From Rhizophagus irregularis (lineage: Eukaryota), in assembly GCF_026210795.1 (NCBI RefSeq), contig NC_089432.1:2604001-2668000 (forward strand): DNA of 64,000 nt, in the 5' to 3' direction. This document shows, in pieces, positions 24,595 through 62,527 of this stretch (positions within the stretch are counted from its first letter, which is position 1; each line of letters begins with the position of its first letter). The notes below the pieces were generated by a model. That model searched no databases and was not told the DNA's origin. It saw nothing but the letters and a program-made list of their open reading frames with translations. Position numbers and translations under genes: made by a program.

Positions 24595-27359
24595 TTAAGC
24601 TGTCTTATTTCTTAAATCTGCTGCTTTTTGATACAATTCAAATGCTTTTTTCTCATCAATATCAGTTCCAATTCCATCTTTATAACAATCTCCTAAATTA
24701 TCCATTCCAGATGAATTTCCTAAATCTGCTGCCTTTTGATATAATTCAAATGCTTTTTTCTTATCAATATCAGTTCCAATTCCATCTTTATAACAATCTC
24801 CTAAATTATCCATTCCAGATGAATTTCCTAAATCTGCTGCTTTTTGATACAATTCAAATGCTTTTTTCTCATTAATATCAGTTCCAATTCCATATTGATA
24901 ACAATATCCTAAATTATTCATTCCAGATAAATTTTCTAATTCTGCTGCTTTTTCATATAATTCAAATGCTTTTTTCTCATCGATATCAGTTCCAATTCCA
25001 TATTGATAACAATATCCTAAATTATCCATTCCAGATGAATTTCCTAATTCTGCTGCCTTTTGATATAATTCAAATGCTTTTTTCTCATCAATATCAATTC
25101 CAATTCCATCTTGATAACAAACGCCTAAACTATTTATTCCATCTACATCTCCTAAATCTACTGCCTTTTTATATAATTCAAATGCTTTTTTCTCATCAAT
25201 ATCAGTTCCAATTCCATGTTCATAACAATATCCTAAATTATTCATTCCTGATGAATTTCCTAATTCTGCTGCCTTTTTATATAATTCAAATGCTTTTTTC
25301 TCATCAATATCAATTCCAATTCCATCTTGATAACAATTTCCTAAATTATTCATTCCTGATGAATTTCCTAATTCTGCTGCCTTTTTATATAATTCAAATG
25401 CTTTTTTCTCATCAATATCAATTCCAATTCCATCTTGATAACAATTTCCTAAATTATTCATTCCAGGTGAATTTCCTAAATCTGCTGCCTTTCGATATAA
25501 TTCAAATGCTTTTTTCTCATCAATATCAGTTCCAATTCCATGTTCATAATAATATCCTAAATTATTTATTCCAACTGCATTTCCTAAATCTGCTGACATT
25601 TGTGTCATTTGAAATGCCATTTTTTTATCAATATTAGTTCCAATCCCCTCTTCATAACAATTTCCTAAATTATTCATTCCAAATGCATTTTTTAAATCTG
25701 CTGCTTTTTGATATAGTTCAAATGCTTTTTGTTTATCAATACTGATTCCAATTCCTAAATAGTTAAAATGTCCAAGTAAAGCAATATAATTTGAATTATT
25801 TTGATTGTTTAATAATAAATTATAAATTTTTTGTAAGTCCATATTATGATTATCAAGGTAATTTAGGATTATCTGTTTTCCTATTTCATAACAATCATTC
25901 TCAAGAAGATTAATTATATCATTAACTATTATATTAAAGCTATTTTCAAAACTGTTATTTGATGATATTGAAGTTTCTATATCTTTCGTATTCATCATAC
26001 TACAATTTTGAATAACTTGAGATAATTCTCCATGTAATGAATTAGTACTTTCAGAAATTTCAACATCTAAAATTGGCTGTTGACTATTTGATGATTGAAT
26101 ATCCTTGTTATTATCATATAAGTGAAAATCTTTTATAATTATATTTTTTTTTGTTATAATTGCTTTTAATTCATCAACTACTTGATTGATAGTTGGTCGA
26201 TTATCAGGTTCAATATTCCAGCAATCTACAGAAAATTTATCTTTAATTAATTAAAATTATATGGTTTATAAATCATATAAATGTAATTTTATACATACCA
26301 GTATAAATTTTTATATATTCTTTAGGTGTATCATGAGTGGGTGTTTCTCTAAGGTCTTGTAAAATACTTGAAATTAAACTAAAATCATGTGATTTACCAT
26401 GAAAAGGAGGCTGACAACTGGCTATTTCCCATAATAATACGCCAATGCTATAGACATCACTTTTATTATTTAATATATATGGCGTTGTTGTACTTCTGTT
26501 AAAACTTTTTGGATCAATATAAGGAATTAATCCAAATATTTTTGATTGAGAGTTGGATGTTTCCTCAATTCTTTTTGATAAGCCAAAATCTGCTAATTTA
26601 ATAGTATTCTGATGGACTAACACATTATTAGAGTGCTATTTAATTACATTAAAATAGAATAAGATAAACTAATCATTAAAATACATTACGCAATCATAAT
26701 AAGATGTAAATTAATTACCAAATCACGATGCACGATCCCTTCGTTATGCAAACATGATACTGCACAAACCAGTTGGAATGCAAGATTGAATTTATCATTC
26801 CAAGTGAGTTTTTCCAAATTTACTTTCAAATATTTTCGGAGAGTACCATTGTCGGCATATTCCATTACTAACAAATACTCTTTTTTTTGGATTTCTTTTT
26901 TTTTTAAAAAAAAACAATTTAATTAATCATATTTAATATAAAAAAAAAAATATTACTAGAATTTTTGATACCTATACTGGAAGTTGTGGATGTGACACCA
27001 TAAAAACGGATAAAATTATCATGAAAATCAACTTCATGCTGAAGTTGAATCTAGCAATAAATAGTTTGTTGATATCAGAAATGTACATATATAAATTGAA
27101 ATATATTCGATATTAAAATTACCTCACGAACAATTGCTTTAAGTGTAGCGTCATTGAAAATAAAAAAGGATTTTAGTGCACAATGTTTGTAATAATTCTT
27201 CCAAATTGCACGATAAACTTTTCCAAGGCCTCCGAAACCAATTTCTTGCGGATTACAAAATTGGTCAAATTCATAATACTTAATAAGTTTTTTAGAAATT
27301 GCATCTTCAATCCAATTACACTCATTTGAGTTTTTAGTAAGTTCAGTGTTATTAGACAT
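24595..27359 (-). CDS. TKL-type kinase fused to 11 highly similar Sel1 repeats (a 12th repeat is lost to premature stops)
   Basis: Five exons splice in frame: GFGGLGKV, HRDL|HSNN, DFG, DCWNIEPDNRP, then 36-aa (108-bp) Sel1 units. Confidence 0.9.
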
Positions 27360-33809: not shown

Positions 33810-36800
33810 CTAGCCCTTGATTTTAACTTTGCCTTCAAAATCGCTATTCTGATCTAAAATAATTTAATAAATAAAAAAATAAATACATCAAATATAGGTA
33901 AAAATAAGTTTATTATAAGTATAGATGCTTACCAGACAATTGTGAAATGTCAATTTGCAGGGATTCTATCAAAAAAAAAATAAGTATTTTGTATACAATT
34001 AATTTGAATATTTTTTCATTAATCAATACCTTGAGACTCCATACTAATTTCAGAATACTTTTGCTCAGAAAGATTATTGTCATTGATTTTTAATTTTTTT
34101 AATTGAGAAATATCAATTAATAAGGATTCTAATTAAAGAATTGAAATAATATTAGTTAGTATTTTACAATTAATAAGAAATTTTATATTAATCATTACCT
34201 GAAGATTTTATGCTAATTATATCATCATTCTCTTTATAATAATCATCAGTATTTTTTGGTTCAGGAAGATTATTAAAATTAAGTAATCTACTGGTATAAA
34301 TAGCTTCTGAATGTGTTTTAAATGATATTCCTAAATTGGTTGAAATTGCACTGACCAATGTTCTACTATTGGTTATTTCTGATTCCTTAATTTGTTGTTG
34401 TATTCCTGTATAATTATCAAATTCGCTATGACCACTTAATTCCCTAAGCCATTGGCTTAACAATTTTTTAATTTCTTCTGCTTTTGGCCTATTTAATTGA
34501 TTTGCATCCAAGCATCTTTTAATTAAATTCACAATTAATTGAGGAACTCTAATATTGAATCTTGGTCTTAGTCCTTGACAAATTCTTATTGCTAAATTAT
34601 TATTATGGCTTACATCATGATATGGAGGTAATCCAGAAATTACCTCATACATAATTATACCAATACTGTAAATATCTGCAGCTTTGGTATAATCTTGGCC
34701 TCGTAAAATTTCAGGAGCAATATAAGGTAAAATACCATATATTTTATTTTTAGTATTTTCTGATGCATTATAATCTGCAGGTTTGCATAATCCCATATCA
34801 GTTATACATGTCATGCTTTTAAGCCTTAATATATTACCAATATGCAAATCTCGATGAATTAATTCTTCTTCATGAATATCTTTAAGTCCATGTGCAATGC
34901 TATGTAAATAATTAATTTTATCACTCCAACTTAATTTATCATAATTTCCATTTAAATAATTTCGCAAATTTCCACCTTCTGCATAATCTAAACCATAACA
35001 TAATTTTTTGTTTCTGGATCTTGAGTTATTCCATAAAATTTAATAATACGCTTTTGCAAGTTTAATTTGTAATGTAAGGTTATCTATATATTAAATAAGT
35101 ATTAGCACTAATAATTATAAAGATTTTAAATTTCAAATAGTAAAATAATTCACCTCATTCATAAATTCAAATGTAACATTTTTTGAATTATTTAAGCTTT
35201 TGAGTGCTACAAACATATTTTGATCTTTTCTTTTCCAATTTTGTTGTTTATTGTCCCATTCATCAATATATCCGTCAATCCATCTTGCTCTATATACTTT
35301 GCCAAACCCACCTTTTGCAATAAATTCAATATCATAAAATCTGTAGTAAGGTATCCATTCTAATGCTTTTTTGGACACATTATAATTACTATATGTTGAT
35401 AATTGGATACCTCGAATAAATTTATCAATATCTTCATTCCCACTAGTCCAATTTTTGAAGTTTTGCTGAAAATGGATTGTACTAAATACATATTTATAAT
35501 TATTGGTTTTTGGATCTTGAGTTACTCCATAAAGTATTTCAGCCTATAAATAAATTATATTAATGAAAATTTAAATTTTGAAATATTATTAATAATTAAT
35601 TTACCTCATATTTAAATTCTAATGCAATATCTGCCAAATTGTTCAAGTTTTTAAGAATTACATACATATTCTGGCCTCCTCTTTTCCAATTTTGATGTTT
35701 ATAATCCCATTCAATTATATATCCATCAATCCATTTCGCTCTATATACATCTTTTGTAATATATTCAATATCATAAAATTTATTGTAAGATATCCATTCT
35801 ATTGTTTTCTTGAATATTTCATAATCATCATGTGTTGATAACTGAGAATCTTGGATGAATTTATCAACTTTTTTATTACCACTAGTCCAATTTTTGAAAT
35901 TTTGTTGAAAATGTATTATACTACATGCATTTTTACATTTTTTACATTTATTATTCAAAACCATCATATAATTCTTAGCTTCTGAATCTTGAGTTATTCC
36001 GTAAGACATTTTAACCTATAAATAAATTATATTAATGAAAATTAAAATTTTAAAAATATTACTATTAATTAATTTACCTCATCTCTAAATTCTAATGCAA
36101 CATCTACCAGATTATTCAAGTTTTTAAGAATTACATACATATTCTGGCCTCCTCTTTTCCAATTTTGATGTTTATAATCCCATTCAATTATATATCCATC
36201 AATCCATTTCGCTCTATATACATCTTTCGTAATATATTCAATATCATAAAATTTATTGTAAGGTATCCATTCTATTGCTTTTGTGAATACTTTACAATTA
36301 TCATGTACTGATAACTGAACATCCTGAATAAATTTATCAACATCTTCATTACAACTAGTCCAATTTTGGAAGTTTTTCAAAAAATGCATTTTGCAACACA
36401 CATATTCACATTTTTCACATGTATCATTCAAAACTACTATATAGTTCTTAGTTACCAGATCTTGAGTTATCCCATAAAATTCATGAGTTATACAAAACTA
36501 TAAATAAATTATACTAGTGAAAATTAGATTTCAAAAATTTCATTAACCAATATATTAATTTACCTCATTTATAAATTCGGAACTGACATCTGTTGGACTA
36601 TTTAAGCTTTTAAGAACTACAGACATATTTTGGCCTTTTCTTTTCCAATTTTGATGTTCTTTATCCCATATGTCCATATATCCATCAGCCCATTTTGCTC
36701 TATATACTTTACAAAACTTATTTTCTGAAATATATTTAATATCATAAAATCTATTGTAAGGTATCCATTCTATTGCTTGGCATGTATAATTACTATGATC

Positions 36801-36950
36801 TGATAGCTGAGAATCTTGAATATATTTATCAATATAATTATTCCCACTAGTCCAATTTTTAAAATTTTGGTTAAACCGTTTTGCATTACATTCACTATCA
36901 CAATCACATGACTTAATCAGCTTTTTGGTAATTTTAGCAAAGAATTCCAT
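33810..36950 (-). CDS. Multi-module TKL-type kinase: three tandem partial N-lobe-like modules followed by one complete kinase domain
   Basis: Four repeats of NWTS(G/C)N..(I/V)DK(F/Y)I...EWI.Y..F.DI...VYRA.W.DG, each ending at an E|GT splice site. Only the fourth has GGFGKV and continues to HRDLHIGN, DMG, APE. Short 3' exons to a TAG at 33810 are less certain. Confidence 0.85.
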
Positions 36951-42681: not shown

Positions 42682-43140
42682 AGTGCAATATAACGTAATA
42701 GGCAAAAAATTACAAAATTTTATTAACACTATCAATGTAATTGATTATAATTATTATAAAAAGAGAGAAAATGGTATCTAAGAATAGAAAAAAAAATGTA
42801 AGAACCTTAAAGTTTGAGAGAAAATGAAAAAATCATTAGTTATTGATGGTAAACTCAATAATCGCCAATAATCTCAAACTTTGGACGAAAGAAGTAAAGA
42901 AACTCAAAACTGTACATAATAATTGACTTATAAGGAAAAGCTGTAAACAAACCTATTAACGCAACTTCTGGCAGGGAATCTTAGAAAAGAATGCGAAACA
43001 TATATTGGGTTTAAAATATTCGGTGAAAATCCACCCCAGCCAAATGATCGACATAGTTTATAAGCTGGATGTTCGTGCGCTAACTTATAGCTTATAAACT
43101 GCCCATGGGCATATGTAGCCCACGGGATCTGATTGGTTCA

Positions 43141-44250
43141 GAATGAGGACAATAATGTCCTCATAATTATGGACTGTGATAGTCCTTTAGTTTAAAAATG
43201 AGGGCAATAATGTCCTCGTAATTATGGACTATGAAGTGCCTTCAATTTAAAAATGAGGACAATAATGTCCTCGTAATTATGGACTATGATATGCCTTCAG
43301 TTTAAAAATGAGGACAATAATGTCCTCGTAATTATGGACAATGACATGCCTTCAGTTTAAAAATGAGGACAGTAATGTCCTCGTAATTATGGACTATGAT
43401 GCGCCTTCAGTTTAAAAATGAGGACAATAATGTCCTAACGTAATTATGGACTATGACAAACCTTCAGTTTAAAAATGAGGACAATAATGTCCTCGTAATT
43501 ATGGACTATGAAGTGCCTTCAATTTAAAAATGAGGACAATAATGTTTTCGTAATTATGGACTATGATATGCCTTCAGTTTAAAAATGAGGACAATAATGT
43601 CCTCGTAATTATGGACAATGACATGCCTTCAGTTTAAAAATGAGGACAATAATGTCCTCATAATTATGGACTATGATGTGCCTTGAGGACAATAATGTCC
43701 TAACGTAATTATGGACTATGACAAACCTTCAGTTTAAAAATGAGGACAATAATGTCCTCGTAATTATGGACTATGATAAACCTTCAGTTTAAAAATTAGG
43801 ACAATAATGTCCTCGTAATTATGGACTATGATGTGCCTTCAGTTCAAAAATGAGGACAATGTCCTCATAATTATGGACTATGATAGACCTTCAGTTTAAA
43901 AATGAGGACAATAATGTCCTAACGTAATTATGGACTATGATAAACCTTCAGTTTAAAAATGAGGACAATAATGTCCTCGTAATCATGGACTATGATGCGC
44001 CTTCAGTTTAAAATGAGGACAATAATGTCCTCATAATTATGGACTATGATGCGCCTTCAGCTTAAAAATGAGGACAATAATGTCCTCATAATTATGGACT
44101 ATGATGCGCCTTCAATTTAAAAATGAGGACAATAATGTCCTCATAATTATGGACTATGGTAGACCCTTCAGTTTAAAAATGAGGACAATAATATTCTCAT
44201 AATTATGGACTATGTTGGGCTTTAGTTTAAAAATTAGGACAATAATGTCC
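43141..44250 (+). repeat. Left subterminal tandem array, about 21 x 55 bp
   Basis: Consensus GAGGACAATAATGTCCTCGTAATTATGGACTATGAnnnnCCTTCAGTTTAAAAAT. Confidence 0.97.
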
Positions 44251-44255
44251 CTATA

Positions 44256-44588
44256 CATCATGGCGGATTTATAGAATACCCAAAAATTTGTCTGTCATGT
44301 CAAATTAAATAAATATTAGATGAGGTATTATTTTAGTCATCAAATTTCTATTTAAGTCCCAAATTTATTAGTGAACAGTCAAAAATGAGTTCTAAAAAAT
44401 TTTTTTGTACCTTAAATCTTGCATCTAACCAATTTTCCCATTATCTAAACAATTATTTCAGTATTAAAGGCACATCATTATTTGACATTTTTTAGGAAAA
44501 AGCTTAATGTTTTGGTAAGTCAATTTTGATTTCTGAGGGCGCAGCAGGATTTTTGCCAAATTTCATAAATCCGCTGCAATAAATGATG
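44256..44588. mobile_element. MITE inserted into the innermost 55-bp unit (second copy at 51741-52006)
   Basis: CATCAT..GCGGATTTAT ... ATAAATCCGC..ATGATG ends. The interrupted repeat unit resumes at 44589 (GACTATGATGGACTTCAGTTTAAAAA). Confidence 0.7.
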
Positions 44589-45326
44589 GACTATGATGGA
44601 CTTCAGTTTAAAAATAAAGGAAAAAATTATATAGTGGAACGGAAAGTTCACTATGACGAGCTTTGACTGTATAACTTTAGTTGCTTATTTAAATTTTTTT
44701 TTACTAGCTAGTACTAGTATTTTTAATTATCCAATCAAAATTATAGTCCAGAGTTTAAGTATTAAATAAGTTGCAAATTCAACTGTAAAGTTCTTTAATT
44801 AATTGCATATGGTTTAATATATTTAATTTCAATTTTTATATAATGATAATATACATGATTTAAAATGTACAATTAGCTTACTGGTATATAATGAATTGGT
44901 CTGTTCTGTTCTGATCCAGTCTGGTTTTAACAAAACTAGTCTTTTAACTAGAACTGGATCAAATCAGCCTTTGAGCCATTTTAAAGATTGTTCTTTAGAC
45001 TGGTATAAAACTGAAATTATTTTGCTATATGTATGTAGCTTTGACTTAATCAGAAAGACAATGAAATTATCAGTCATAACTTAACAGTCATTATTTAATT
45101 ATATCTAATTTGTAATAAACTGATATGAAATTTGAAATATGAAATTTTAATATTATATGATAATGAAATTAAATCATTTTATTGGATGAAAAATTTATAA
45201 CCTTGGATTAAAGACCATAATAACCAGTTCTAGAACTGGGGAAATTATTTTATTACCAACTATAATGCTAACTATTCTACTATTCACTCAAATTATTTAT
45301 CTTAAAATATATGTTATTTAAATTAC

Positions 45327-46743
45327 TTAATATCTTTTCTTATCTTCAGTACTTAAATCAGAATAATTACAGAATAAAACATCTTCAGGCCATCCTATTA
45401 TAGTATATTTAGTTTGGTTATACCAATTTTTATAGGGTATTCTTTCTTTTGTTATCAAATCTATAATTAATTAAGTATAATTATTATTAACTTTCCATTA
45501 TATTTAAAATTATAATTATTACTTACTAAATTTCTCTTGTAAATATTTTCTAACTTTATCACGTGCATTCTTACTATTTGGACATTCTTTATCAATAATA
45601 GATAATTGATCATCTGCACTTTCTATCATAGTTATATCCTCTATATCTTTTTGAAATGTAACTTGTTTAATAATTTCATTTTTAGCTGATACAGAATAAT
45701 ATAAAAAGTTAGTTAATTTTTATAACATTTGTATAAAATAATATTATTATACCTGATTTTTTTAAACAAGAAAAATGATAAAAACTGTTATGAATTTCGT
45801 CTAGTTTTAAGCAGGACTTGTAAAATTCTTCACCAACTGGAGTTCCAAAATAAGAGATGTTCAATTCTTTGCTTAAAGGAATCACAAGTGTCAAAAATTC
45901 TACATCACAGGTAATTTGTAAAGTTCGATACTAGAAATCAAGCATTTAATAATTAATTATATAGAATTTTATATTTTAACTGATAATCTAATAATATATA
46001 TACATACCAATTTTCTAATTTCACAAATTTGTTTATTTAATTCAGCTTTGCGAAGTCTTATACTTTCTATTAATTTTGGTTCTTTATTGAATCTATTTTC
46101 AGATAATTCTTCAGCTCTGTTTTTAAAAGAATTCAATTGTTCTTTATTAAGCAATGCATATTCTTCAGCACATTGTTTTTGAGCTCCTGGAGTAGTAACT
46201 TTAATTTCTAGTAAATATATAATTCTTTTAATAAGTAAATATTTTATGATAAATTAAACCAATAATATTTATAGAACATACTATTTTTTTTGAACCATTC
46301 AGTTTGAAATGTATTCCATGAACTAATACTGCGAGTCTTTTTTGGTGCTGGTTCTCGATTATCTTTCATGATACTCTATAATTTATAAAAAATTTGGTCA
46401 AATCAAAATAAATTATTCTTTGAATTGTATTCAAAATTTTTAACCTTTATAAATGCTAGCTCAAGTTGGCATTCATCAGATAACATTTGGATTTCTGCAT
46501 CATGTTTTTGTTGTAAAGCAATAATCTTTTCATATTTTTCCTGTGTAAGACCTAAATTAAATTAATTAACTTAAATATAAACTGAAAGTATAAAGTATTT
46601 TAATATTTAAAACATTATATTGTAATTACCATCGCCTTTTTCTTTGAAAAGTTGATCACTAAAAGAATCAGATATGAGATATTAATACAAGGTAAATAAT
46701 TTTTAAACAGTATATCAAAAAAACTTTACGTTGAAATATCCAT
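45327..46743 (-). CDS. Transposon-borne HMG-box-like protein, 8 exons, about 300 aa
   Basis: Hand-spliced GT-AG model: MDISTDQLFK...PKKTRSISSWNTFQTEWFKKNKIKVTTPGAQKQCAEEYALLNKEQLNSFKNRAEE...IPYKNW...IIGWPEDVLF. Possible 1-nt frameshift just before the C-terminus. Confidence 0.7.
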
Positions 46744-47049
46744 TATGAGATGGGTGTAAAGAGATTAAATGATCAAAAAGATGAAAAGATTGTGATGAAA
46801 AAAGCATGAAAATGTTATTTTAATTGGCTGTCAGCTATTTTGATCAAGAATTATGATTGGCTAATAATCACCTGAAACAAACAAACAATCATTTGTACAA
46901 TAAATAATGAAAAAAATATGATTCAAAGTTTTGGTGACATACTTTTAATTACTAACTTATCAAATTGCTTCTCTTTACTGAATTTTTAGAAAGCTTACTT
47001 ATTCACTGTTAGGGTATTTAACTCATTACCATTTCTAATATTTTCTCAT

Positions 47050-47830
47050 TTTATTTTTTTAATAATTTTACTATTTTCTGAATTTTTTTGTTTTTATTAT
47101 TTATACTTAACTCCTCTGTTTCTCTATCACTTCTTTTATCCTTCTCTAATCAAGAATCTCCTTATCTTTTAATCCAATTTACCTATGCTTTGAGACTTCT
47201 CAGAACTTACTACTTCTTGACATCTCATTTTCCAAATTTTTTCATATATATACGTCAAATATAAGTCACAACATATCTTCAACATCTTTGAATCATCTAC
47301 TTTACAATGTTTATATTGCCAAATCTTGATGTTAGAAAGTCCACGCATTATCTCATATAGTAAATTCTTAATGTAAATAATCTTGATTTAACATTACTAT
47401 GTTGTAAAGCTTTTCTCTTTCTTTATTATCTTCTGTAATTACATTGACTGCATCTATCCATAAATTAATAGAAGAATCTTGTTACAATGCTACTATATAG
47501 TAGTATGATCCCATGTTTCTGTTTCTTCATTACATCTTATACATTTCTCTGAAGAAGTTCCAAAAACTTTCCTTTGATATAATATTTCATATGTTGGCAA
47601 TGTTTAAAGAAACTTTTTGATCCTAAAAGCTCTAATTTGAGTATCCATCGCATTAGTTGATGATTTTGATACACTTGTTTCATTACGAATTATCATAAAC
47701 AAAATTGGCCAATTGATGTTAACTTATATTAGTTACAAATAGCTGTTCTAATTATTTTAATAACATAATTTCTTTCTTATTGTTAAGACTACTAAGGTCT
47801 TTGGCCCATTTCTATAACAACCTTCCATAT
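47050..47830 (-). mobile_element. Decayed LINE ORF2 C-terminal fragment nested in the KDZ element
   Basis: LPTYEILYQRKVFGTSSEKCIRCNEETETWDH (Cys/His finger region), with many stops. Confidence 0.65.
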
Positions 47831-47899
47831 TTTATTTTTTAAAAAAAAATTTGCACTGCATTTCTTTATTAAACAATACCATAGATATACATATTAACG

Positions 47900-50800
47900 T
47901 CAGAAATACCTAGAGGCATGTGAAAAAGCACATGACCCTATAGCAAACCAGTCTATTTAAATACAAAGAGCATATATAATTATATATACCTGAGCGTGCA
48001 AAAAGAACTAACAACAATATATAATCGATGTCACTCAACCCAAAAGAAACAATACAAAATAAAAAAAGAAAAACAAAAAACTTTCACACATAACATATAT
48101 AAAAACTCTAGACCTAACAGAAAACTAAAATTTAACTAAAGTAAGATTACAAGTAACTTCCATTATACGGAAATGTGTTTAAAACCAAACGAAACTTTCA
48201 TTAGTGACCACTCGCCCAGAATTATCACACCTCTTTTCCAACTTCCATCACCTATAATCCACTTATCCCTTTTTTTTATTTTTTTAATTTTAATAATGCA
48301 TTTATTATCAATTACAAAAAGATTACATAAAAAAATTTTTAAAACACTAAAAAATAATTAAAAATTTTAATTATCTTCTATAACTAAAAGCATTTTATAC
48401 TAAAAAATTTTTTTATACTAATTTATTTTAATACCCCCATGATTTCGTAATTGATATACCTTCCATTATTTCTAATATTGTTTTCTATATTTTTTCTTTA
48501 TCTTTTTCTATATTATCTGCTGTTTTGTATTTTTTCTCGCTTTACCTCCTCCTTTTGCTCTTTTGATCTTTTTTACGTTTCTTTTTCTCACCTTTCTTTA
48601 AATCCTTCTTTTCTTCTATCGCCACTACATCTTTACATCTTTTATCCCATATTTTCAATCTTATATTCTCATAACAAAAACACCACAATTCTTCTATAAT
48701 CATATTGTATTCTTTTTCTTCAAAATAAGATTGAAATTGTTATTATATAATCCTCTAAGCATCTCCCATTCTCTACTAAAACCTAATAAAATTCTTGTAG
48801 GCTTTTCTAATACTTGAACAAAATCCTATTAATATCTCATAATATTGTCGAATCATCAATCTTTTTTTCATCCTCCAACTTTTTATCGAATTCTCTATAA
48901 TTTCTCTTACAGAAAATTCATTACACTCACATTTCCATTAATTATACCAATCTTCTTCTTCCTTATTGCATCTTGGGCAGGTATCATTATCAATCCAAAT
49001 ATTTTCCTTTTAAAAAGTACACTATATGTTAGTAATTCTTTTATCCAATTTTTAATTTTATACGCTCTTTCTTTTGTGTCCTCTTGCGCACATTGCCAAA
49101 ATGTAAATTTGTTCCATTGCTTATAAATTTTAAAGACTTTACCCAATCGAATTTATTTCTGTAATTATAGGAAAATAAATCTTCAATCTTTTTACTATTT
49201 AAAATTTCGTTCTTCCATATCACTTCTGAAACTTTCTTTCGCCATCCCCTTAAATCTCCTAAAATCAAATTATATTTCCAATATAAATTGAATTCGTTGG
49301 TCACTAATCCCCCTTCATTAAAGTCTATCATATATGTTTCATTTTTGCTTTCTTTCATTTGCAATAGAATTTATCCATTTCTTCTTTACATATTTTTATA
49401 TCGTTCGCCTCCTTCTCCGTACACGAAATCGTTCTTATATTCATTTGCGATCAAAACTTTTCTATTACCAATAACTCCATATTGTATTCATTATCTAACC
49501 TTCGTCTTGTACTTAAATTTTCTATAATTCTTTGATAATTCACAAAATTTCCCATCTAAACCTAAAATTAATTCGCTATTACTATTTAATAAAATGATAC
49601 CTATTATCAAACATCTTAATAAAATTTTGTATTCATTCTCAAACAATACTTTAAATTTTCTGTTAAAATTAATCTCATTCTTTGTAACGAATTCTTCATG
49701 TCTTATCTTCCACATTACTAAATATTCAATCGATTTTTTCCCATTTTCCTTAACTTTACTTTTTAGTTTCATAACCTCTATCATTAAAAAATTTACCTTC
49801 CTCCTAAAACTAAAATCGTCTTTCTCTAAAATACTATTCTTTAAAATTCTATCAGATTTTTATTTGTATTAACCAAATTATCTATCATCTCAATTCTTGT
49901 ATTAAATCTTTATTCTTTTTATTCTTCTCTTAAATATTTTTCCACCAGATCATTTATTTTTAATATTTCGGAATGTCTCATAAGGTTTGATATTCCAACC
50001 TTCGTTCCGTTTTCTAATAATCCTACTTTCTTCATTTTAAATAAATTAAACATTCAATTTTACTCTCTTTATTCATATTTTTTTTTACCTATATTCTTTT
50101 TACAACCCTTACATTTAATTAAAGTAGGTGAATCATCTATATTTATATTCTCATTTATCATGATCCAATGTATCCCTATCCTCTTATAATTTTTATTTCT
50201 TGATTTTTTCCTATCTTCTCCAAAGATAGGAAATCCTTTTTCATCATTCCATGTTATTAAATTATTTCTTGACACTTTCTCATTTTCATCAAAAATTTTC
50301 ATATGAATATTATTTCTATCAAAATTTTTATTTTTATATTAAATTTCTCATCTCTTTATTTTCTCTCACTTCGTTTTCTACAATCTTAAACCAATTAGGT
50401 ATTTTACCTCTAAAACTCAAATCATTTCCTATAAAACATGTTTCCACTTCATTATTCTAAATTGATTTGCTTCCAATAATTGTTCTAAAAAGAGAATTTC
50501 TTTCTTTCTTCGTGATAATGCACTTCTTTAAATTTCTGAATCAGGTAATAGATCTATTATCTCTATATTACCACCTTTAATCTTATGCCCTGCATTTTCG
50601 TCTAAAATCTCATGATTGCATAAACTCATGTTTCTGATTTCAACAAGTTAATTGCATCGTTAATCTAACAATTGCGTCCTTTTATTGCTTTACCATTTAT
50701 ATCTCCTATGCACACTGCGGTCCACAATCTCATTTATTCTTGCATTATCTTGATTTTAAATAAAGTACTCAATTTTTCATTACCATTTGCTAAATAAATA

Positions 50801-51170
50801 ACATTCTTACTTAAACTTTCAAGTTGCAGATCGTAAATATTTTTTAACCCATAAAATCTTTCTCATATAAAATCATTTTTTAAAGCTTTCATAATTTGTC
50901 CCCATCAAAATTTTTCCTTCGTTAGAATTTTACTTAGTCATTTACCAGAATTTTCAAAAATAATTTTCTCGCTGTCTCTATTAAAGTAATTGGTTGTATC
51001 AATTTCAAATCTTGATTCCAGTCGGATAAATTAGACCTTTTTTCCATTCTCCTAAAATTACTCCACACTCCATACCCTCATTAATTATTCCTAACAAAAA
51101 CCTTTTGTTAAATTTTTACAATATTTCCAATAGTCATATGGAATCCCACATTCCCACTAATATCTGGAGC
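47900..51170 (-). mobile_element. Second decayed LINE (ORF2 3' half plus 3' UTR) nested in the KDZ element
   Basis: Frameshifted fragments: LFLEQLLE, RGKIPNWFK, GDLRGWRKK, ERAYKIKNWIKELLTY, REWEMLRG. Boundaries approximate. Confidence 0.65.
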
Positions 51171-51740
51171 TTTATTATTTTTTGCGTGCTGGCATCTCTA
51201 TAAAAAAAATAAGAAATTTCAGAAACATTTCTTTAAAACAATTAAATTAAAGAAAAAGCTCTATCTCCTATAAGTGTCTACCTTCTTTGTTTAATGGCAC
51301 CCTTTGAAAAACTTTAAATTTATATTTCATTTATACAGTATTCTCTATTGTCTCATGTTTTATTATACAAGTAAAGATTTTGATTATCTCAAATTTAGCT
51401 ATAATAAATGATGGTACTGGATTATATTATAAATAGTTGATAGAAGCCAGGTGTAGAGTACTGAAATATTTGCAAAGAAATCTTAAAATAAAATTGGAAT
51501 TTTAACAATTTAATTAGCGTTAATTAGGATAATCATTAAAAGCCGAAACCAAATTTACTTTTATACCATGTGAAATCAGACAATCAATACAAAATATGAC
51601 GTAATAAAAGTTATTGGAAAAATCGAAAAATCAGAATTTTTTTATTTGATTATAATAAATATAAAAATAATTATTAAAAGTTTAATATTCAGTTTCATAA
51701 TAAATATATAATATTTATATAACAACTTAATTAAAATTAA

Positions 51741-52006
51741 CATCATGGCAGATTTATGAAATACCCCAAAATTTGTCTGTCATGTCAAATTAATTATATG
51801 TTTGATCACCAAATTTCTATTTAAGTCCCAAATTTATTAGTGAACAGTCAAAAATGAGCTTTAAAAATTTTTTTTTCCAGTGTTAAAGGCGCATCATTAT
51901 TTGACATTTTTTTAGGAAAAATTTCTGTAAGTCAATTTTAATTCCCAAGGGCGCAGCAGGACTTTTTCCAAATTTCATAAATCTTTATAAATCTGCTGCA
52001 ATGATG
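51741..52006. mobile_element. Second copy of the 44256-44588 MITE
   Basis: Collinear, high similarity (AAAATTTGTCTGTCATGTCAAATTAA; AAGTCCCAAATTTATTAGTGAACAGTCAAAAATGAG) with internal deletions. Confidence 0.75.
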
Positions 52007-52427
52007 ATAATCAGTAATATTTATTTCTTGAAAAAATAATCGCAAATGAAGTTAAATTTTTTCGCCTAATATGAAGAATTTTATGCCACAATAAATTTGC
52101 ATCATTTTTGTGATTGATTTAATATATAAATTTGCACAAGAAAATAATTTTTACACAAAAACCCTATAACTATCTTTTTTTATTTAGTAATCATTAATTT
52201 AAATTTGATTGATGATATATTACATTTTATTTTCAATTGACCGTTTATGATTAAATAATCCTTTGTAATTTAAATTGTATTATAGTTACTAATTAAAAAA
52301 AATTCAAATAAAATGTATAGATTTTTTTTTATTATTTTAGCCCCCATTTGATCGGAGTACAAACTATAAATAAGTTTTCTATAATTTTTAACAGGTAATT
52401 AAAGTAATTATTCTATTTTGAGTTACA

Positions 52428-52730
52428 ATCTAAAAATAGTATAGAAAACATTTCAAACATTTTCCCATTACGCGTTTAATTCTAAAAATAGTATAGAAAA
52501 CATTTCAAACATTTTCCCATTACGCGTTTGATTCTAAAAATAGTATTGAAAACATTTTAAACATTTTTCCATTACGCGTTTAATTCTAAAAATAGTAAAA
52601 CATTTTCCCATTACGCGTTTAAGTCATTTAATTCTATAAATAGTATAGAAAACATTTCAAACATTTTCCATTACGCGTTTAATTCTAAAAATAGTAAAAC
52701 ATTTTACCATTACGCGTTTAATTCTAAAAA
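52428..52730 (+). repeat. Tandem repeat, 6 units of 39-60 bp, each containing ACGCGT
   Basis: TTCTAAAAATAGTA...AAACATTTTCCCATTACGCGTTT; ACGCGT at 52470, 52522, 52574, 52613, 52673, 52712. Confidence 0.92.
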
Positions 52731-52819
52731 TAATTAATTACAAATGTACTAGAATAAAATAACATAAACAATCCCTATTTTTCTTTTTTTTAACGTTTAC
52801 GAAATTTTAAACTTTTACA

Positions 52820-54810
52820 ATGTCAAATAATATAAAGGTAAATTGTACTTTTAGTTATTATAGTTAAATAAAATTATTTATAATGTATTTAATATGTTTA
52901 TTTATTTAACTTTAAGGACAATAAAGTTTCATTATCATTATCTGATAATGACAATATAAAAATTTCAGAAGCTTTATCTTTTATTCGTAATAAACTTCAA
53001 GGCCGCCTTAAAAACATTTCTGTCATCAACGATCGTACAGCTGTCGTCATATATGGAAAACATAAAGATAGATTGATGATCGATTTGAAGGATAATAATT
53101 ATTATGAAAATTTAGAAGTAAGATTATTAAAATTAAATTCTTTTTTTTCTCTATAATTTATATTTATATTTTTATATGCATATTAGGAAAAACTCGAAGC
53201 ACTTAAAGCTGAAAATAATAATTTGCTGGTAAATAGTGTTATATATAATACAAATGTGTTTTAATTTTAAAATTTACATTTTATTAAAATTTTATTTAAT
53301 ATATTAAAATTTACTTTAGTCTGAATTGAAGAAGTTTGAAACCCTGGCGCGTTTTGATGGATCATTTTCAACAGTCGTATCATCAGATAATGATAATAAC
53401 GAAACTAGTCTAGTTGATAACATATCTACAACTTCTACTGCATCTAATAATTTGCCATCAATGTCATCCCCGTCTATATCAACTTCTTCTAAACCTTTTA
53501 AATTAGAAGATTATATTACAGTTTTAAATAATGATTTAAATACCGTTAATCAATCAATTGAAGATGATTCTGATGAAATTTGGGAGAAATTAAATTCCAG
53601 ATGCCACAAAAAATTTGGATATAATAACGAAATCAAACAACCTACAAGAGAGGATATAAAATGGGGGGCTGATATTCTACCTATTTATGCAGAATGGAAA
53701 AAACTAAAAGATTTTAAATGTTTAATAGAAAAATGGATCGCTAAAATCAACGAATATATGCAGAAAAATGATATGTTATCGTCGTCCCCAACTTTAATTT
53801 CATCTTCATCTTCGTTCTCAACATTAATTCAACCATCACCATCTTCAACATCAGTTCCATTATCATTTGTCTCTTTAATTAAAGGAAAGAAAGTAAGAGA
53901 TAATGTAAATGAAAGCATAGAAGTTGTAAAAATTAATGTAGATAATAAAAATGAAGTGGACGAAGATGTAGAAATTATGGAGATTGATGTAGAAAATGAC
54001 GATATACAAAATGAAGAAACTGAAGGTATTTCTGTTTTTTATTGAACTAATAAATATAATTATTATTAATTTATATTTATATAATCTATTATATTTCTTA
54101 AATCAATAGATAAAGCAAAAAAAAACCTTGAAGCTAAAGAATTAAAAGAGAAGAAATTCAAAAAATTTGGTGAAAAACTCCGAAAACTAGTTATGGATGA
54201 TCTTCAATCAAATACTCATGATTCACCAGTTCAAAAATTGGCAGATAAAGATATGGTTAATGAATCGGATTTACAAAATAATAATTTAACGCACTCCCTT
54301 AATCTTTTAACTGCTGAACCAATTAAGATTATAGATAAAACAAGTGGTATACAAAGAGTCAAGCAGTGGGCCCTCCAAAAGAACCAAATAGAAAAAATTG
54401 GAATAGCGTTCAATGTATTCAAGTTTTATCATAGGATGTCCTTGATTGATATTTATAATGAAATTAATGTTGTGGCAGAATCAAATTTTCCAAATCAGAA
54501 GGGTAAACAAAGGACATTTGTAAAAGAGATTATTTGTATTCAAGAAGGCATTTCAGAACGTTCAGAACGACGTTTTAAAACAAGTGCAATGAGGTTACAA
54601 CATATCGTTAGTGCAGGAATATCCTTTAATCAGATAATTAAAGTAGGAATGCACGTATCTGATTTTGAATCCACCAACCATTTTTATGAAATATTTATGG
54701 AAGCACTTGATATCAATTCAATAGAAAATTTAAATGAAGGAGTACGACCATTGAATACAAAAATTTTATTTGATAAATTGTCAGCATATGAAATAATGGA
54801 ACTAGATTAA
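52820..54810 (+). CDS. Transposon-borne protein of unknown function, 5 exons, 555 aa
   Basis: Exons 52820-52837, 52917-53117, 53187-53228, 53320-54025 and 54110-54810 are all GT-AG, in phase and stop-free. Ser-rich and acidic linkers; helical C-terminal domain. Confidence 0.8.
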
Positions 54811-55347
54811 TGAGTTTTAGCATTTATTAATTTTTAGTTAAATTTGTATTGTTTTTTTTTTTGAAGTAGGGAATTATTATAAAATCTTTACTAAATATTA
54901 TTAAAATTATTGAAATAAAAGATTCTTAAAGTAATAGTTCAGTATAAATTAAAGTTACCGTGCATTGCTTAAAAGGCCCATTTTAGCTTCTATATTTAAT
55001 ACCGACCCAAAATATCATAATATATAGATTTTTTTTATTTTCTTAAATTAAGAATATTAAACCATTAAACCATTACTATAAGTTGAATGAAATCTTTCGT
55101 ACATTAAATTTGTTTAATACAGCAGGATGTATGTATACACCCGATCTAATTAAATGTTTTAAACCTGGTAAATTGATTTATACCTAAGGTATTAGGCAGT
55201 GTTATAAGGTACTTATGGTAATATCTGCTAATCTGCTTTTATTTTATAAATAGATTTGATCTGCAGCAAGTAGTCTAATTGGCTAATTTAGTTTGATCAA
55301 TCCCGAAAAATTTTTTTTTGTAAATTTATTCTTTTTACATATTTAAT

Positions 55348-58300
55348 ATGAATAAAGGAAATTTGAATAAAAAAGGTATTTATATTATTGTTATTAAAGA
55401 AATATATTTAAATTGTTACTTAATATCTTTTATTTTTAGGTAAAATTAGTTACAGGCCTTATTTAGTTTCTTCAAATAAAAAAAATGCAAAAAAAGTAGT
55501 TATTAATCGATATGCAAAAGGAAGTAACAAATATCGAGCCAAAAATTTATCTGAAAATATATATAAATCTACTGAAATAGTGGATGAAGATAGAAACAAT
55601 GATGAATGGATAGATATTGATATTATAAAAGAAGATGAAAACTATAGTTCTGCTAAAAATACATATAAAAATGCTCAAAAAAATTTGTCCGAAAATTGGA
55701 GAAAAATCTCACCAAAATTATTTGACATTATGATAGAAAATAATGCAATTAATAAGGACTCCAAATGCTTCAAATGTAATTCACCTGCCATTTGTTATTG
55801 TTTAGATTGTGGTCTTAATACTTATTTGTGTTTAGAGTGTAATACTTTATATCATAAGGATATAAATTTATTTCATAGAAAAGTTTTTATAAGTAATATT
55901 TTTGATAAAGAAGAAATAAAACTACCACAATTATGTACAGGATTTTGTGAGCATGAAATTAAGGAAATATCAATCATTAATTTAAAAGGTAAAGTATAAA
56001 TCTTATTTGTTATACTTTAATAAAATTTTCAATTAAATAAATATTGCATTAAATAGGAATATTTAAAGCAAAATTTCCAACTTGTGAAGGTTTGGTCGAA
56101 ACATTAATCAGGCATAAATTATTTCCTTCCACCCCTATAAATCCACAAGTTGCTTTCTCATTTGAATTATTTGATATTTATCAAGAATTATTACTCGAAG
56201 CACATGTATCATATCTTTCATTTTGTCGAGTATTAGAATCATTATTCTCTGATCAAGATATAACTAGAGTTAAGTTTTTAAAAAATTTCATTATATTAAT
56301 GTTATATAGTTTACTAATATGTTTTTATTATTATTAGAACATATATTATCTTTTTAAATCTGCTTTTCATCAATATTTAGGATTAAAAACTATGATTGAA
56401 AATACTATTAATAAGTTATTTAGTAGTAAATCACAATTTAATTGTCCAGCTTGTCCACAGGTAACTTTATTTTTTGCTTGATTTACTTCCCATTTATATT
56501 TTTAAAAACTTTTTTACATTATATTTTGAATTAATAAACAAATTTAATTATAGCCAGAAGAGAAAAACTCTAAAATTATAATTGCATTGGATGCTAATTT
56601 TCAACTTAAACGAATGAAAAGTGCTGGTTCTAATATTGGTGAAAGAATAATTGAAGAATCATTTATTTTAAACCAAAATAAATATGATGAATGGGTACAA
56701 AATTCGATTAATTTAAGTTCATTAAATACATTAAATATAAATAATAATAATGCGGTAAGTATTCTATATATATATTTGTTGTTTATTTAACTTCATTTAT
56801 TATTTTAATTTGTTAATTATTAATTATTTATTATTTCATTAAGCAAATAAATGTATGTGACAGCCATTTTAAAGCGGCTAATCAAACAAAAGCAAACCTT
56901 AAATCCAATTATTTGGACGATACAGGAATATTTGGAAGTACATGTAGGCACGGCATTCCTTTAAAATTTATTAATTTAAAAGGAATTGGGGAAAGGTAAT
57001 TTATATATTATTGTAATATTAACATTTGATATTAACATTAGTTATTCATATTATATAATTACATTTTTATAGATTTTCTTTAGCAGAATATATTTTATCA
57101 GATTTACATAATATGTTTTATGAAGATTCTTCTACATTTATTGTCTTATATGATATTGCATGCAATCTTCATTCACATGTAGAAAAAAGTGAAAGTAGAC
57201 TTTTTCCATTCAAATCTCGATTTAATTGGTGTGTTTCAATATTTCATGCCTATGCACATTCAATGAAATGCCAATTAAATTACCACCCAAGGGCTTGTAA
57301 TTCCATAGGATTAACTGATGGGGAAAGTTTAGAAAGACTGTGGTCATATTTAGGACGCTTTTCTTCTACAACAAGATATATGAGACCACATCATAGATTG
57401 GATATTTTAGAAAAAGGAATTCAGCATATAAGTAGAAAAATGATTAGTAATTTAGGTAATGTTCAATTAAATTTATGATAATTTAAAATATTTATATTTT
57501 AATTTATATTTTTATTTTATATCAGCATGTAACTTAGTTAAAAGGTTTAAAAATGCTTATAAAATAATGAATGTATCAGTAAAAATATTAAAAGAAATGG
57601 AACAAATGCATGGAATTGATGAAAGTAAAATACTTTATTATATTCAGTGCCAGTATGAATCCAATTTTGGTAAATATTATGTATTTTATTATGCTAATTT
57701 TTTAAAAATTAGTTTTAATATATGAGATTTTTAGTTTTTAGGCAACATTTAATTGGAAAAGAGTTGTATTTCTTAAACCTAATGGAATTACATCCATATG
57801 AGTATGTACTAATTTTATTCAAGTAATAATTATTTTAATATTACTAAATACTAATATTATTTTTTTAGGATTGAAATATCAAAAGCTAACTCTGAAAGAC
57901 AGTTGGAATCATTAAAAAGATCTCGCTCATTATATATAAAAAAAGTTGAAAAATGTGAATCAGATTTAGATATACCTGAATCAAAAAGATGGAATCCATT
58001 TAATCCTATATATTCCAAATATTTTCATGATTATTGTGAACGTAATTTGGATTTAATTTCTGATAAGCTTAGAAAATTTCGTAATGAATATATATTTAAA
58101 AATTCACAATTATATAATCAAGACCATATAGGTAATTATATATATTTGTAATCTTAACTTATTTATTAAAATATTATTTAACCATATTTATTTTTATTAG
58201 GTCATAAGTTAACATTAAAAATTAAATCAAGTATTAAAGATATTTCAAAACAAATTGAAATAAACATTTCATATTATGAATATTTCAGATTACTTGCACA

Positions 58301-58992
58301 AGAAAATTCATTTTGTAAAGATTATCCAAAAGCAATATTTAATGAAATAGTTAATCATACGTCAGATTTTTGGCAAATATTAGATATATCAATTAATGAT
58401 AAAATGGATAATATACCTCGAATAGTTATATTCAATTCAATTAAAAATTTTAATAATTTACAACGGTCTAAAGAAGAAATATCATTAATTGTGCAAGAAT
58501 TAAAAAGATTATATGATTTCTGGATGAATTATAAAATTAAAATTGAAAATAAATTACAACAATTACAACAATTTAATGAAAAAACTACAAAAAATGTAAG
58601 TATTATTCATTTTTATCTTGTAATTATTTTGAACAAGCTATTAATAATCTAAATAAAAAATTTGTTTGTAGTATGGAATGATTTGTATTTTGATGAAATA
58701 TTATAAAAATGTAAGTAAAAATTTAGAAAATTGTCAGATAGCTTTAAACAAAATTGAAAATTACAAAGTGAATAATACTGTACAAGTAGTAGATGTTCCA
58801 ATTTATGATTTAATTAATGAGATTGAGGAAGATAATCTTTTAAAAGGAGATTTAGCAGAAAATTTAACTGAATTAGAAATTTGTGATAATGAAGAATGTA
58901 TAGAATATGAAGGGGAAATAGTAGATAAAAGTAAAGATTGTGAAGAAGAAATAATAACAGAAGGTGAAAGTATGGATTATAAAATAGTATAA
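55348..58992 (+). CDS. KDZ-family transposase with N-terminal Cys clusters, 12 exons, about 945 aa
   Basis: CFKC..CLDC..CLEC..H; LFPSTPINPQVAFSFEL (CxC-type); CPACP; ALDANFQLKR; DTGIFGSTCRHG; GERF; YDIAC; FHAYAH...CQ; GLTDGESLERLWS. Exons total 2838 nt with no internal stop. Confidence 0.93.
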
Positions 58993-59636
58993 TCGATCCA
59001 AAAGGAGCAATATGAATTGAATATCTAATAAATCTGACAAATATTTTGATACTTAAAAAAATTAGTCATATATAATATAATATTTATTATAACAACTTTG
59101 AAATAAATAGAAGAAACCTATTTTACTTTAAAAATAACTTTTCTAACAATTTGATTAGGAGTTTAAAGCGGTAAAAAAATATTGCAATTAAAATATATTT
59201 TTATTTCTCTAAATTTTCTGCCACATTATTACCTTTTAGTTTAAATGGTTATGGCACAATTTCCTGACGGGATTACATTTGCCTGAAAGATTTGGCCAGT
59301 GTTATGCAGGTTATGCATGAACACGTGATCAAACGGCCAGCGTTAGGTTATTGGAAAAATGTCCTGTCAGGGAACAGTCCATAAGTGGTTTAAATAGACA
59401 ATCAAATATGAAAATACATTTTAAACAAAAAGAACATGCTATTTATAATATAACCTGTTAATAGTAAGTTATATGAGTATACTACTGTTATTATTTTAAA
59501 TGAGATCTATAATTATAAAGACACTATGATTGTCCATTTACTAATTAGGAGGTTCCTATAATCTATATATGAATACAGAAGCTGAATATAATTTAAATGA
59601 GAGGTCCAATATTGTCTGTAATTATGAGAGCTATTT

Positions 59637-61016
59637 TAAACTAAAGGACTATCATAATCTATAATTACGAGGACATTATTGTCCTCATTTTTAAACTGAA
59701 GGCACATCATAGTCCATAAATACGAGGACATTATTGTCCTCATTTTTAAGTTGAAGGTCTATCATAGTCCATAATTACGAGGACATTATTGTCCTCATTT
59801 TTAAACTAAAGGACTATCATAGTCCACAATTACGAGGACATTATTGTCCTCATTTTTAAAATGAAGATCTATCATTGTCCATAATTACGAGGACATTATT
59901 GTCCTCATTTTTAAACTAAAGGACTATCATGGTCCATAATTACGAGGACATTATTGTCCTCATTCTTAAATTGAAGGCACTTCATAGTCCATAATTATTA
60001 GGACATTATTGTCCTTATTTTTAAACTGAAGATCTATCATAGTCCATAATCACAGGGACATTATTGTCCTCATTTTTAAACTGAAGACACTTCATACTAG
60101 TCCATAATTACGAGGACATTATTGTCCTCATTTTTAAGTTGAAGGTCTATCATAGTCCATAATTACGAGGACATTATTGTCCTCATTTTTAAACTAAAGG
60201 CTTGTCATAGTCCATAATTACGAGGACATTATTGTCCTCATTTTTAAACTGAAGATCTATCATGGTCCATAATTACGAGGACATTATTGTCCTCATTCTT
60301 AAATTGAAGGCACTTCATAGTCCATAATTACAAGGACATTATTGTCCTCATTTTTAAACTAAAGAACTATCATAGTCTATAATTACGAGGACATTATTGT
60401 CCTCATTTTTAAATTGAAGGCACTTCATAGTCCATAATTACGAGGACATTATTGTCCTCATTTTTAAACTAAAGGACTATCATAGTCTATAATTACGAGG
60501 ACATTATTGTCCTCATTTTTAAATTGAAGGCACTTCATAGTCCATAATTACGAGGACATTATTGTCCTCATTTTTAAACTAAAGGACTATCATAGTCTAT
60601 AATTACGAGGACATTATTGTCCTCATTTTTAAACTGAAGGCACATCATTGTCCATAATTATTAGGACATTATTGTCCTCATTTTTAAACTGAAGATCTAT
60701 CATGGTCCATAATTACGAGGACATTATTGTCCTCATTTTTAAACTAAAGGACTATCATAGTCCATAATTACGAGGACATTATTGTCCTCATTCTTAAATT
60801 GAAGGCACTTCATAGTCCATAATTACGAGGACATTATTGTCCTCATTTTTAAACTAAAGAACTATCATAGTCCATAATTATGAGGACATTATTGTCCTCA
60901 TTTTTAAGCTGAATAAGGCGCATCATAGTCCATAATTATGAGGACATTATTGTCCTCATTTTTAAACTGAAGGCGCAACATAGTCCATAATTACGGGGAC
61001 ATTATTGTCCTCATTC
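59637..61016 (-). repeat. Right subterminal tandem array, about 25 x 55 bp, reverse complement of the left array
   Basis: GAGGACATTATTGTCCTCATTTTTAAACTGAAGGnnnnTCATAGTCCATAATTAC units at about 55-bp spacing. Confidence 0.97.
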
Positions 61017-62527
61017 TGAACCAATCAGATCCCGTGGGCTACATATGCCCATGGGCAGTTTATAAGCTATAAGTTAGCGCACGAACATCCAGCTTATAAA
61101 CTATGTCGATCATTTGGCTGGGGTGTGAAAATCTGGGAATTTTTTTTAATCAGATGATCGACGTTGCACACACCATTTTATTTGATCACCAAGAATATCA
61201 TCATACGAATGTACTGTATTATTACAGAAGATTATATCATAGTAATCTATTTAAAAAAAAAAATTTATATCAAAAAAAATTTCCATTATCAAATCTATTA
61301 TAAAAAAAATATATTCTTATAACCAAAGCCTATTGTTATTACTAAAAAAATCAATAGAACTATTACTTAATAGTATTGGAATGACACCAGTTTATACCAG
61401 GAAGCAAAAAAAAAGTAAATTTTTTTTATAACCGGGAACTAACTATTACTATAAATTAATATTAGTAAATGTCAGTTACCGATCGGGTAAAGTCCGATCT
61501 ATTGTTGGAAAAAAATTTTTAAAAAATCTTGAAAAAATTTCTAAATTAAAAAAAAAATCCTAAAAAAAAAACAAAAAAAAATTACTAAATGATCTATTAA
61601 AAATGATTTATCATTAAAAAAAAAATAAATGAAAATTACTAAAATGATTCTGTTAAAAAAAAAATAATGATAAATGACTAAACAATCTATTAAAAAAATA
61701 AAAAAAGTTACTAAATGATTATTAAAAAAAATAAAAAAAAGTTACTAAATAATCTATTAAAAAAAAATCAATAAAAATTACTATAAGATCTATTGTTAAA
61801 AAAAAATAATTGTTTAAAAAAATAAAATTACAAATGAAAAAAATTCCGATCCAAAAAAAAAATTAAAAAATTAAAAAATTACTAAACGAAAGAAAGGCCA
61901 AAGTCCGATCTATTGCTACAAAAAAAAAAAATCCTGAAGTTAATCTATTACGGTTAAAAAATCAGAGATAAAAAAAATTACTAATCGTATAAAGAAGAGC
62001 AATATTGTATTTACAATTTATTAACTTAACAAGTTAATTGTCTATTACTTATTAATCATATTAGCCAAAACTTCAATTACCAGAAACTAAAAAATTTTTA
62101 TATTAGTAATCAAACAGTAATCAATGGATTTGCTGATCAACTACTATATGAATATGGAATAGTTCAGGCGCAGACAAATCATATTCATATTCATAAGATC
62201 AGCCGCAGTTGTAATATGTCCTGCGGTAAAAAACTTAGTAAGAAAAAAATACATTAAAAAATAAAATTTAGCCGTAGTATAAATCAAATAAAGATACTGT
62301 AAGTGACAGTAACATTAGTAATTCACCAATCAACACTTTTAATTATACAATCACGGGACACGTTTCACAATTCAAAGATTATTTATACGGGTAATCTAAA
62401 CGTTACTGATCTACACAAATTATTTTTATTATATTAATTAATAATATAGATATAGATATAGATATAGATGAAAAAAAGTAATTTAAACAATTTTAGACTA
62501 ATAAATTTACTTAATAACATTAAATGC

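Follow-up and report, generated by a model that had tools for sequence, protein, structure and literature searches.

Why does a transposon of Rhizophagus irregularis carry, just inside each of its ends, more than 1 kb of a tandemly repeated 55-bp palindromic unit? The element lies in a window of 64,000 nucleotides (the whole stretch of DNA analysed here), AT-rich eukaryotic DNA in which it spans positions 43032-61125 (18,094 bp), beginning with CACCCC and ending with GGGGTG. An 8-bp target-site duplication, TGAAAATC, precedes it on the left (43024-43031), and the identical 8-mer follows on the right (61126-61133); KDZ transposons make duplications of 7-8 bp. Contigs of one public sequencing run (X2) read from 43031 into sequence resembling the right flank, as at an element-free site. 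The right flank is itself a repeat in the run contigs. The perfect terminal inverted repeats (TIRs) are 129 bp long (43032-43160, plus strand; 60997-61125, minus strand). Between 43055 and 43111, in their array-free part, are an inverted pair of 12-mers (43055 and 43100) and a 12-bp palindrome, TGCCCATGGGCA, which on sequence grounds are candidate primary binding sites. A 9-mer, ATGATCGAC, occurs both in the right flank (61146-61162) and at TIR base 13, which may be coincidental or may hint at how targets are chosen.

The transposase gene (55348-58992, plus strand) has 12 exons with GT-AG introns and encodes 945 amino acids without an internal stop. Its product differs at 2 residues from protein P0005, in which Pfam finds a KDZ domain (PF18758, E = 3.9e-51) together with CxC2 (2.5e-8) and CxC1 (1.6e-6), all above cut-off, i.e., the KDZ domain and upstream CxC cluster by which KDZ transposases are recognised. 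For the KDZ exon (57074-57454), identity to R. irregularis proteins is 100%, and the nearest matches outside the Glomeromycotina are from Mytilus, Lineus, and Phycomyces. A fold search with the transposase model (pLDDT 62) returned no solved fold at E ≤ 0.001. The element is a young KDZ cut-and-paste transposon, and a candidate active one.

The first-pass annotation had described 55-bp tandem arrays at both ends, and both TRF and a scan for the unit's 18-mer bear this out. The left array (43145-44255, plus strand) consists of 20 complete units (43145-44234) followed by the start of unit 21; TRF places it at 43142-44250 (55-bp period, 20.3 copies, score 1584). The right array runs in the opposite orientation (59632-61012, minus strand) and has 25 units, with a decayed unit at about 59600-59631 (TRF: 59634-61015, 55-bp period, 25.0 copies, score 1994). 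Each array exceeds 1 kb, and both lie just inside the TIRs, face inward, and start at equal distances from the tips. The 18-mer, GAGGACA-ATAA-TGTCCTC, gave 85 matches with up to 3 mismatches in the 64-kb window (0.01 expected), a count that takes both strands so that most sites enter twice. All 85 fall within the two arrays. The palindrome core does not occur in the element outside them, nor is there an array elsewhere in the window away from the transposon ends. An assembly artefact is ruled out, since the units differ among themselves and independent runs contain the TIR-unit junction. A CRISPR-like array is likewise ruled out, the variable part being only 6 bases. A scan of viral contigs for the unit gave no match, and a loose two-palindrome pattern hit at least 119 metagenome loci, none of those listed being similar to the element by BLAST. 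Many GC-rich contigs from metagenomes have GGACA-N4-TGTCC palindromes in pairs, within REP-like hairpins, and BLAST shows no relation of these to the element.

The arrays had also been taken as TIRs extended to more than 1 kb, which does not hold: identity between the ends is perfect for 129 bp only and the order of units is random between them. With so short a TIR, the first unit is inside it for only 16 of its 55 bases, not as a whole. The proposed mirroring is correct for orientation and fails unit for unit, as left and right units of the same rank differ by a mean of 6.0 bases, the same as under random pairing (6.0; P = 0.50, 20 pairs). BLAST between the two ends gives 88.7% identity over 1.2 kb, which is unremarkable because any two arrays of this unit would give as much. 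Differences within ends equal those between ends (p = 0.15), i.e., the two arrays draw on a shared pool of unit variants. Within the left array is a five-unit higher-order repeat, in which units 2-6 resemble units 7-11 (lag 5), and the right array shows in part a two-unit alternation (lag 2). These higher-order repeats, and unit distances that are equal at one end and across the two, point to two likely routes of turnover: slippage or unequal exchange inside each array, and exchange from one end to the other. Together they would keep the motif and scramble the order of units.

A rival reading is that the arrays are mostly neutral, with one or two functional units beside the TIR amplified by slippage and the apparent conservation due to recent homogenisation plus a mutable quasi-palindromic patch. 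The higher-order repeats do show recent block duplication. The innermost left unit also tolerates an insertion, bridged by contigs of runs X16 and X19: a non-coding insert of 333 bp with CATCA...TGATG ends (44256-44588) splits unit 21, the rest of which resumes at about 44589-44617. Amplification alone accounts less well for 20-25 units at both ends, in matched orientation and starting equally far from the tip, and for a unit length kept at exactly 55 bp in 34 of 44 unit-to-unit spacings. A second copy of the CATCA...TGATG element is at 51741-52006. Both copies are non-coding and roughly 270-330 bp long, we saw a clean target duplication at neither, and they have many relatives in the sequencing runs. 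Their termini agree with those of PlavakaB as given in PMC12730594.

The anatomy of the unit bears on the same question. The TAATTA, the A-tract, and the variable patch named by the first-pass annotation are present. A perfect 7-bp inverted repeat in every unit was too strong a claim; of 46 units, 31 match the 18-mer exactly and 32 have perfectly paired arms. Each unit contains three GGAC half-sites, two forming the palindrome and a third 24 bp downstream, an arrangement that gives it the look of a doubled older repeat (GGACAATAAT and GGACTATGAT). Column statistics were taken over the 35 units (29 distinct) that measure 55 bp; of the 45 units, 10 with a different length were set aside, as was the interrupted one. 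Five segments covering about 42-43 bases, including the three half-sites, are nearly fixed, with mismatch per site of 0.022 in the arms, 0.007 in the 4-base loop (the most conserved segment), 0.032 and 0.046 in the next two segments, and 0.029 in the A-tract. Mismatch rises to 0.32 in the 6-base patch and is 0.10 in the 6 bases after it. This clustering is significant by a best-window permutation (p = 0.0015), a test in which the sites are not independent. Variants at positions 35-47 are mostly shared among units (12/14), whereas those elsewhere are mostly singletons (14/22; Fisher p = 0.006, for a region picked after seeing the data). Clustered variation is the pattern expected if selection acts on a site whose spacer is free to vary, and the singletons outside the spacer argue against neutrality. 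Other details of the unit fit neutral arrays, as the palindrome arms are no better conserved than the A-tract, and two common patch variants, one of them the commonest (7/35 units), perfect a local inverted repeat. The latter is what template switching would do, so a mutational hot spot is possible, and together with homogenisation it could produce the low variation outside the patch. Taking both sides together, we regard neutral arrays as unlikely.

Could the arrays work as RNA instead? They might be a source of structured or small RNA, or their hairpins followed by a U-run might stop the transcripts of two outward-pointing genes. Seven units fold far better than shuffled sequences (z of -9.5 and -9.3), although any array of palindromes yields such z-scores, and in a bacterial-type scan the outward strand has a T run after the hairpin. 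Young TEs of R. irregularis are reported to make small RNAs (PMC8647823, in the part of the text consulted). Contigs at the inner edges of the arrays add a weak hint: X16 has contigs at 44240-44799 (continuing 111 nt past the left end of the stretch it matches) and 59239-59637, and X19 has one at 44240-44627. These two runs were guessed to be RNA, which no record says of either, and in the interior parts without cover no spliced joint was found among those listed. The structured-RNA alternative, offered earlier beside the binding platform, finds no support in covariation or Rfam. Across 41 units, 12 arm pairs have changed, of which none is compensatory, 6 are G-T, and 6 are broken, and no Rfam family came near its gathering score. 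Units that differ by only about 6 bases give such a covariation count low power, yet the absence of compensatory changes fits DNA sites better than RNA hairpins, and conservation highest in the loop is as expected for a DNA site. An RNA-level role seems very improbable.

A second part of the original proposal, that a 55-bp period of about 5 helical turns would roughly phase the sites, can be set aside. With 10.5 bp to the turn, a 55-bp period makes 5.24 turns, which is not close to a whole number of B-DNA turns and rotates each unit by about 86 degrees. Coherence of phase stays at 0.02-0.16 over the range of 10.0-10.6 bp per turn (0.09-0.11 at 10.5) and is high only at 11.0.

Shorn of the phasing argument, the multivalent platform of candidate sites put forward by the first-pass annotation is still the best reading, on account of position, orientation, link to the TIR, conservation, and precedent. 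We think it somewhat more probable than its negation that each array is a row of sites in double-stranded DNA on which many transposase molecules assemble, easing the recognition and pairing of the ends. The confinement of the palindrome to the arrays, the fixed 55-bp length, the single variable spacer, and the shared pool of variants back this reading, as do the TIR that runs straight into the unit in two other runs (X5 and X15, below) and the binding precedent in Muta1 and Galileo. The lack of phasing weakens it, as does the possibility that homogenisation and a mutational hot spot explain the low variation outside the patch; so does the transposase itself, in which we identified no sequence-specific DNA-binding domain. 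If the parallel with Muta1 holds, the palindrome and third half-site would be bound by a dimeric protein, with 20-25 units at each end making up for the 18 kb between the two ends. The TIR has no GGAC half-site over its 113 bases outside the array, which counts against the reading in that arrays and tip would need different binding surfaces. We infer from this pattern that some protein, likely the transposase, binds the arrays and that more copies mean more transposition.

The other genes of the element offer candidates for a helper. A multi-exon gene on the minus strand (45283-46743), to which P0027 maps, encodes a 320-aa HMG-box-like protein. Pfam gives HMG_box_2 (E = 0.11) and a weak C-terminal match to GTF2I (E = 0.008), both below cut-off. 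An HMG box domain-containing protein is the second Atlas match (score 0.94), and 46 of 48 listed Foldseek rows for the P0027 model are HMG-box chains or complexes (best E = 0.16). The model has a confident three-helix segment and is poor outside residues 65-130, and no PDB sequence match was found for P0027. From these three weak lines (Pfam, Atlas, and Foldseek), residues ~64-126 are likely an HMGB-type HMG box. HMGB proteins assist other transposases. The HMG-box-like protein may help the transposase load on the arrays, and an HMGB-type helper that bends DNA is plausible. The second accessory gene (53076-54810, plus strand, given as ORFs) overlaps the N-terminal part of P0003, has no assigned function, and is found in the Mucoromycota; its best Atlas match is an unnamed Mucoromycota cluster. 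Directly upstream of it, at 52429-52732, an unrelated tandem array has 5.2 copies of a 52-bp unit, in which there is an ACGCGT palindrome; it is a possible promoter-side binding array. On the minus strand at 47100-51400 are fragmented purine-rich reading frames, which gave no Pfam match in the pieces tested and which we take to resemble a decayed retroelement. This region travels with the element, as X5 and X15 contain near-identical contigs of it at interior depth. Outside the element the window contains a 108-bp coding repeat (10.6 copies), presumably Sel1-like, and a 473-bp repeat (2.9 copies), at 24607-25755 and 35495-36869 respectively, and within 1-27 kb and 62.6-64 kb there are paralogous parts.

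The accessory proteins suggest a further use of the arrays, i.e., as a dock for the HMG-box-like protein or the second gene product that would keep chromatin open or unmethylated, with no part in building a transpososome. The model for this is VANC of Arabidopsis VANDAL elements, an element-encoded accessory protein acting with non-coding tandem repeats, and PMC5735166 describes its targets as often forming tandem repeats. Other fungal KDZ elements are described as carrying TET/JBP genes with a proposed anti-silencing role (PMC12730594), and R. irregularis is reported to methylate most TE loci (PMC8647823, both from parts of those papers). The unit's CpG is intact in 27 of 35 units; observed/expected CpG in the arrays (0.57-0.61) is, however, no higher than in the interior (0.67). 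We found no VANC-like protein here, and unlike the VANDAL repeats as described in PMC5735166 the arrays are terminal and symmetric. Symmetric at the ends and several kb from the identified start codons, they would serve end pairing more readily than the control of promoters. A further point against a specific dock is the resemblance of the HMG box to HMGB boxes by Foldseek, as HMGB boxes bend DNA with little sequence specificity. We consider such a dock improbable. Similarly doubtful is a two-protein form of end recognition, in which the element-encoded HMG-box protein coats the arrays, brings the ends together, and shields the element from CpG silencing; if true, it would be a fungal counterpart of VANC and a self-supplied version of the host HMGB cofactor.

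Other copies bear on whether the arrays belong to the transposon. Of 24 listed runs, 20 (from 10 studies) contain part of the window, and none is on record as RNA. The contig comparison covered 6 of the 20, and full arrays were read in one copy only. In X5 and in X15, a single unbranched contig of 169 bases leads out of the TIR and across unit 1, its depth roughly double that of the interior contigs (239.8 vs 113-149 in X5; 122.8 vs 59-87 in X15), and in both runs long interior contigs are near-identical to the element. From the unbranched contigs and their doubled depth, we infer that in X5 and X15 the long TIR belongs to whole, young elements and leads into the unit. To judge from these TIR-unit contigs, recent copies there have at least a unit at the TIR, so the refuting case of recent copies that lack arrays does not arise in these two runs. 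Loose ends before unit 1 are all unit tails among the matches listed. X2 has 5 contigs with unlike flanks before 43032, some of which may belong to the tip-sharing family described next; together with the near-identical interior contigs of X5 and X15, they indicate several insertion sites and a probably mobile element. In each of 4 runs, some contigs match only the first 35 bases of the TIR (43032-43066), then share a word of 11-13 bases that ends like a transposon tip, and then diverge. They may represent a very short non-autonomous element of about 46 bp or a sister family with the same tip; such a tip may work without arrays, which counts against the platform. Because overlaps inflate the contig depths summed over the unit and over the 35-base tip, we did not take them as copy numbers. 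One X1 contig joins the interior of a repeat unit (43180) to the TIR tip (43032), as would result if one end of an element had gone into an array belonging to the same family.

The layout, in which a terminal motif is followed by subterminal tandem repeats at both ends in inverted orientation, is that of type-2 foldback elements such as Muta1 and Galileo, as far as the cited papers describe them. In Muta1, a MULE of Aedes aegypti, subterminal repeats are reported to increase transposase binding and excision, and differences between TIRs are confined to the linkers (PMC5499845); the concentration of variation in linkers recurs here. In Galileo (P superfamily), THAP is reported to bind sites in the TIR tandem repeats (PMC3688188), and its repetitive ends of 0.5-1.2 kb compare with more than 1 kb here. 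The present ends thus consist of inverted subterminal tandem repeats, as in type-2 foldbacks, but lack their near-identical long TIR (97% in Muta1 as cited), with 129 bp perfect and 88.7% identity overall. The transposase belongs to the KDZ superfamily, unlike those precedents, and the unit is 55 bp and internally palindromic where the published Muta1 unit is 12 bp plus a linker. As described, neither Muta1 nor Galileo has a 113-bp unique stretch before the array or an unmirrored order of units, and in both binding has been demonstrated where here it is proposed.

Among KDZ elements, KDZ1-3 of Cryptococcus share a KDZ plus CxC transposase and accessory ORFs, and the TIR and target-site duplication sizes match as given in the text available to us: 139-241 bp TIRs, an 8-bp duplication (4-8 for KDZ2/3), and 9-11 kb in length (10.1101/2024.08.15.608186, PMC12810828). 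They are placed in Dileera in the same text. Compared by description, they differ in having no tandem arrays mentioned ('tandem' occurs 0 times in the text of 10.1101/2024.08.15.608186 that we searched). Mushroom Kyakuja elements share CA..TG termini, and 3 of 14 Kyakuja rows in PMC12730594 start with CACCCC. In the first 400 bases, by eye, several of these 14 rows have a repeated GGGCC-containing word, Kyakuja-2_LB has three units of about 60 bp, and Kyakuja-2_AuPo has six copies of one 9-mer. These repeats look irregular over that length, unlike the homogenised 55-bp array. The 11 Zisupton/Dileera rows, similarly viewed, have short repeated words, one ~120-base duplication, and no regular array. 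Similar arrays in other KDZ families, suggested as a point of comparison, thus have a partial parallel in the Kyakuja words and none that is regular in the first 400 bases of the Zisupton/Dileera rows. Two Laccaria Kyakuja families are reported with a 7-bp duplication and no TIR, unlike here, and we saw no TET/JBP gene in the present element, unlike Kyakuja (PMC12730594, as far as consulted; the text portions searched do not discuss subterminal repeats). Clade features are mixed across Kyakuja, Dileera, and Zisupton, with a CACCCC tip and a CxC2 best match on one side and an 8-bp duplication with a TIR on the other.

In the literature on KDZ/Zisupton repeats and R. irregularis satellites that we covered, a scope that left the founding Zisupton/KDZ papers and Repbase outside, the array is not described, and term searches of the accessible text of PMC8647823 and PMC11075540 gave no description of it. 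We also found no paper on KDZ end recognition, again with two founding papers outside the scope. The feature is a regular, kilobase-long subterminal repeat array in the KDZ superfamily, and the surprise is limited by a layout already familiar from other superfamilies. KDZ transposons are large and widespread in fungi, algae, and animals, and are reported to be mobile in Cryptococcus. An intact transposase frame with about 45 natural variants of one candidate site is a ready motif and substrate for work on binding and excision, and the element is a candidate active transposon in a model symbiont with few genetic tools.
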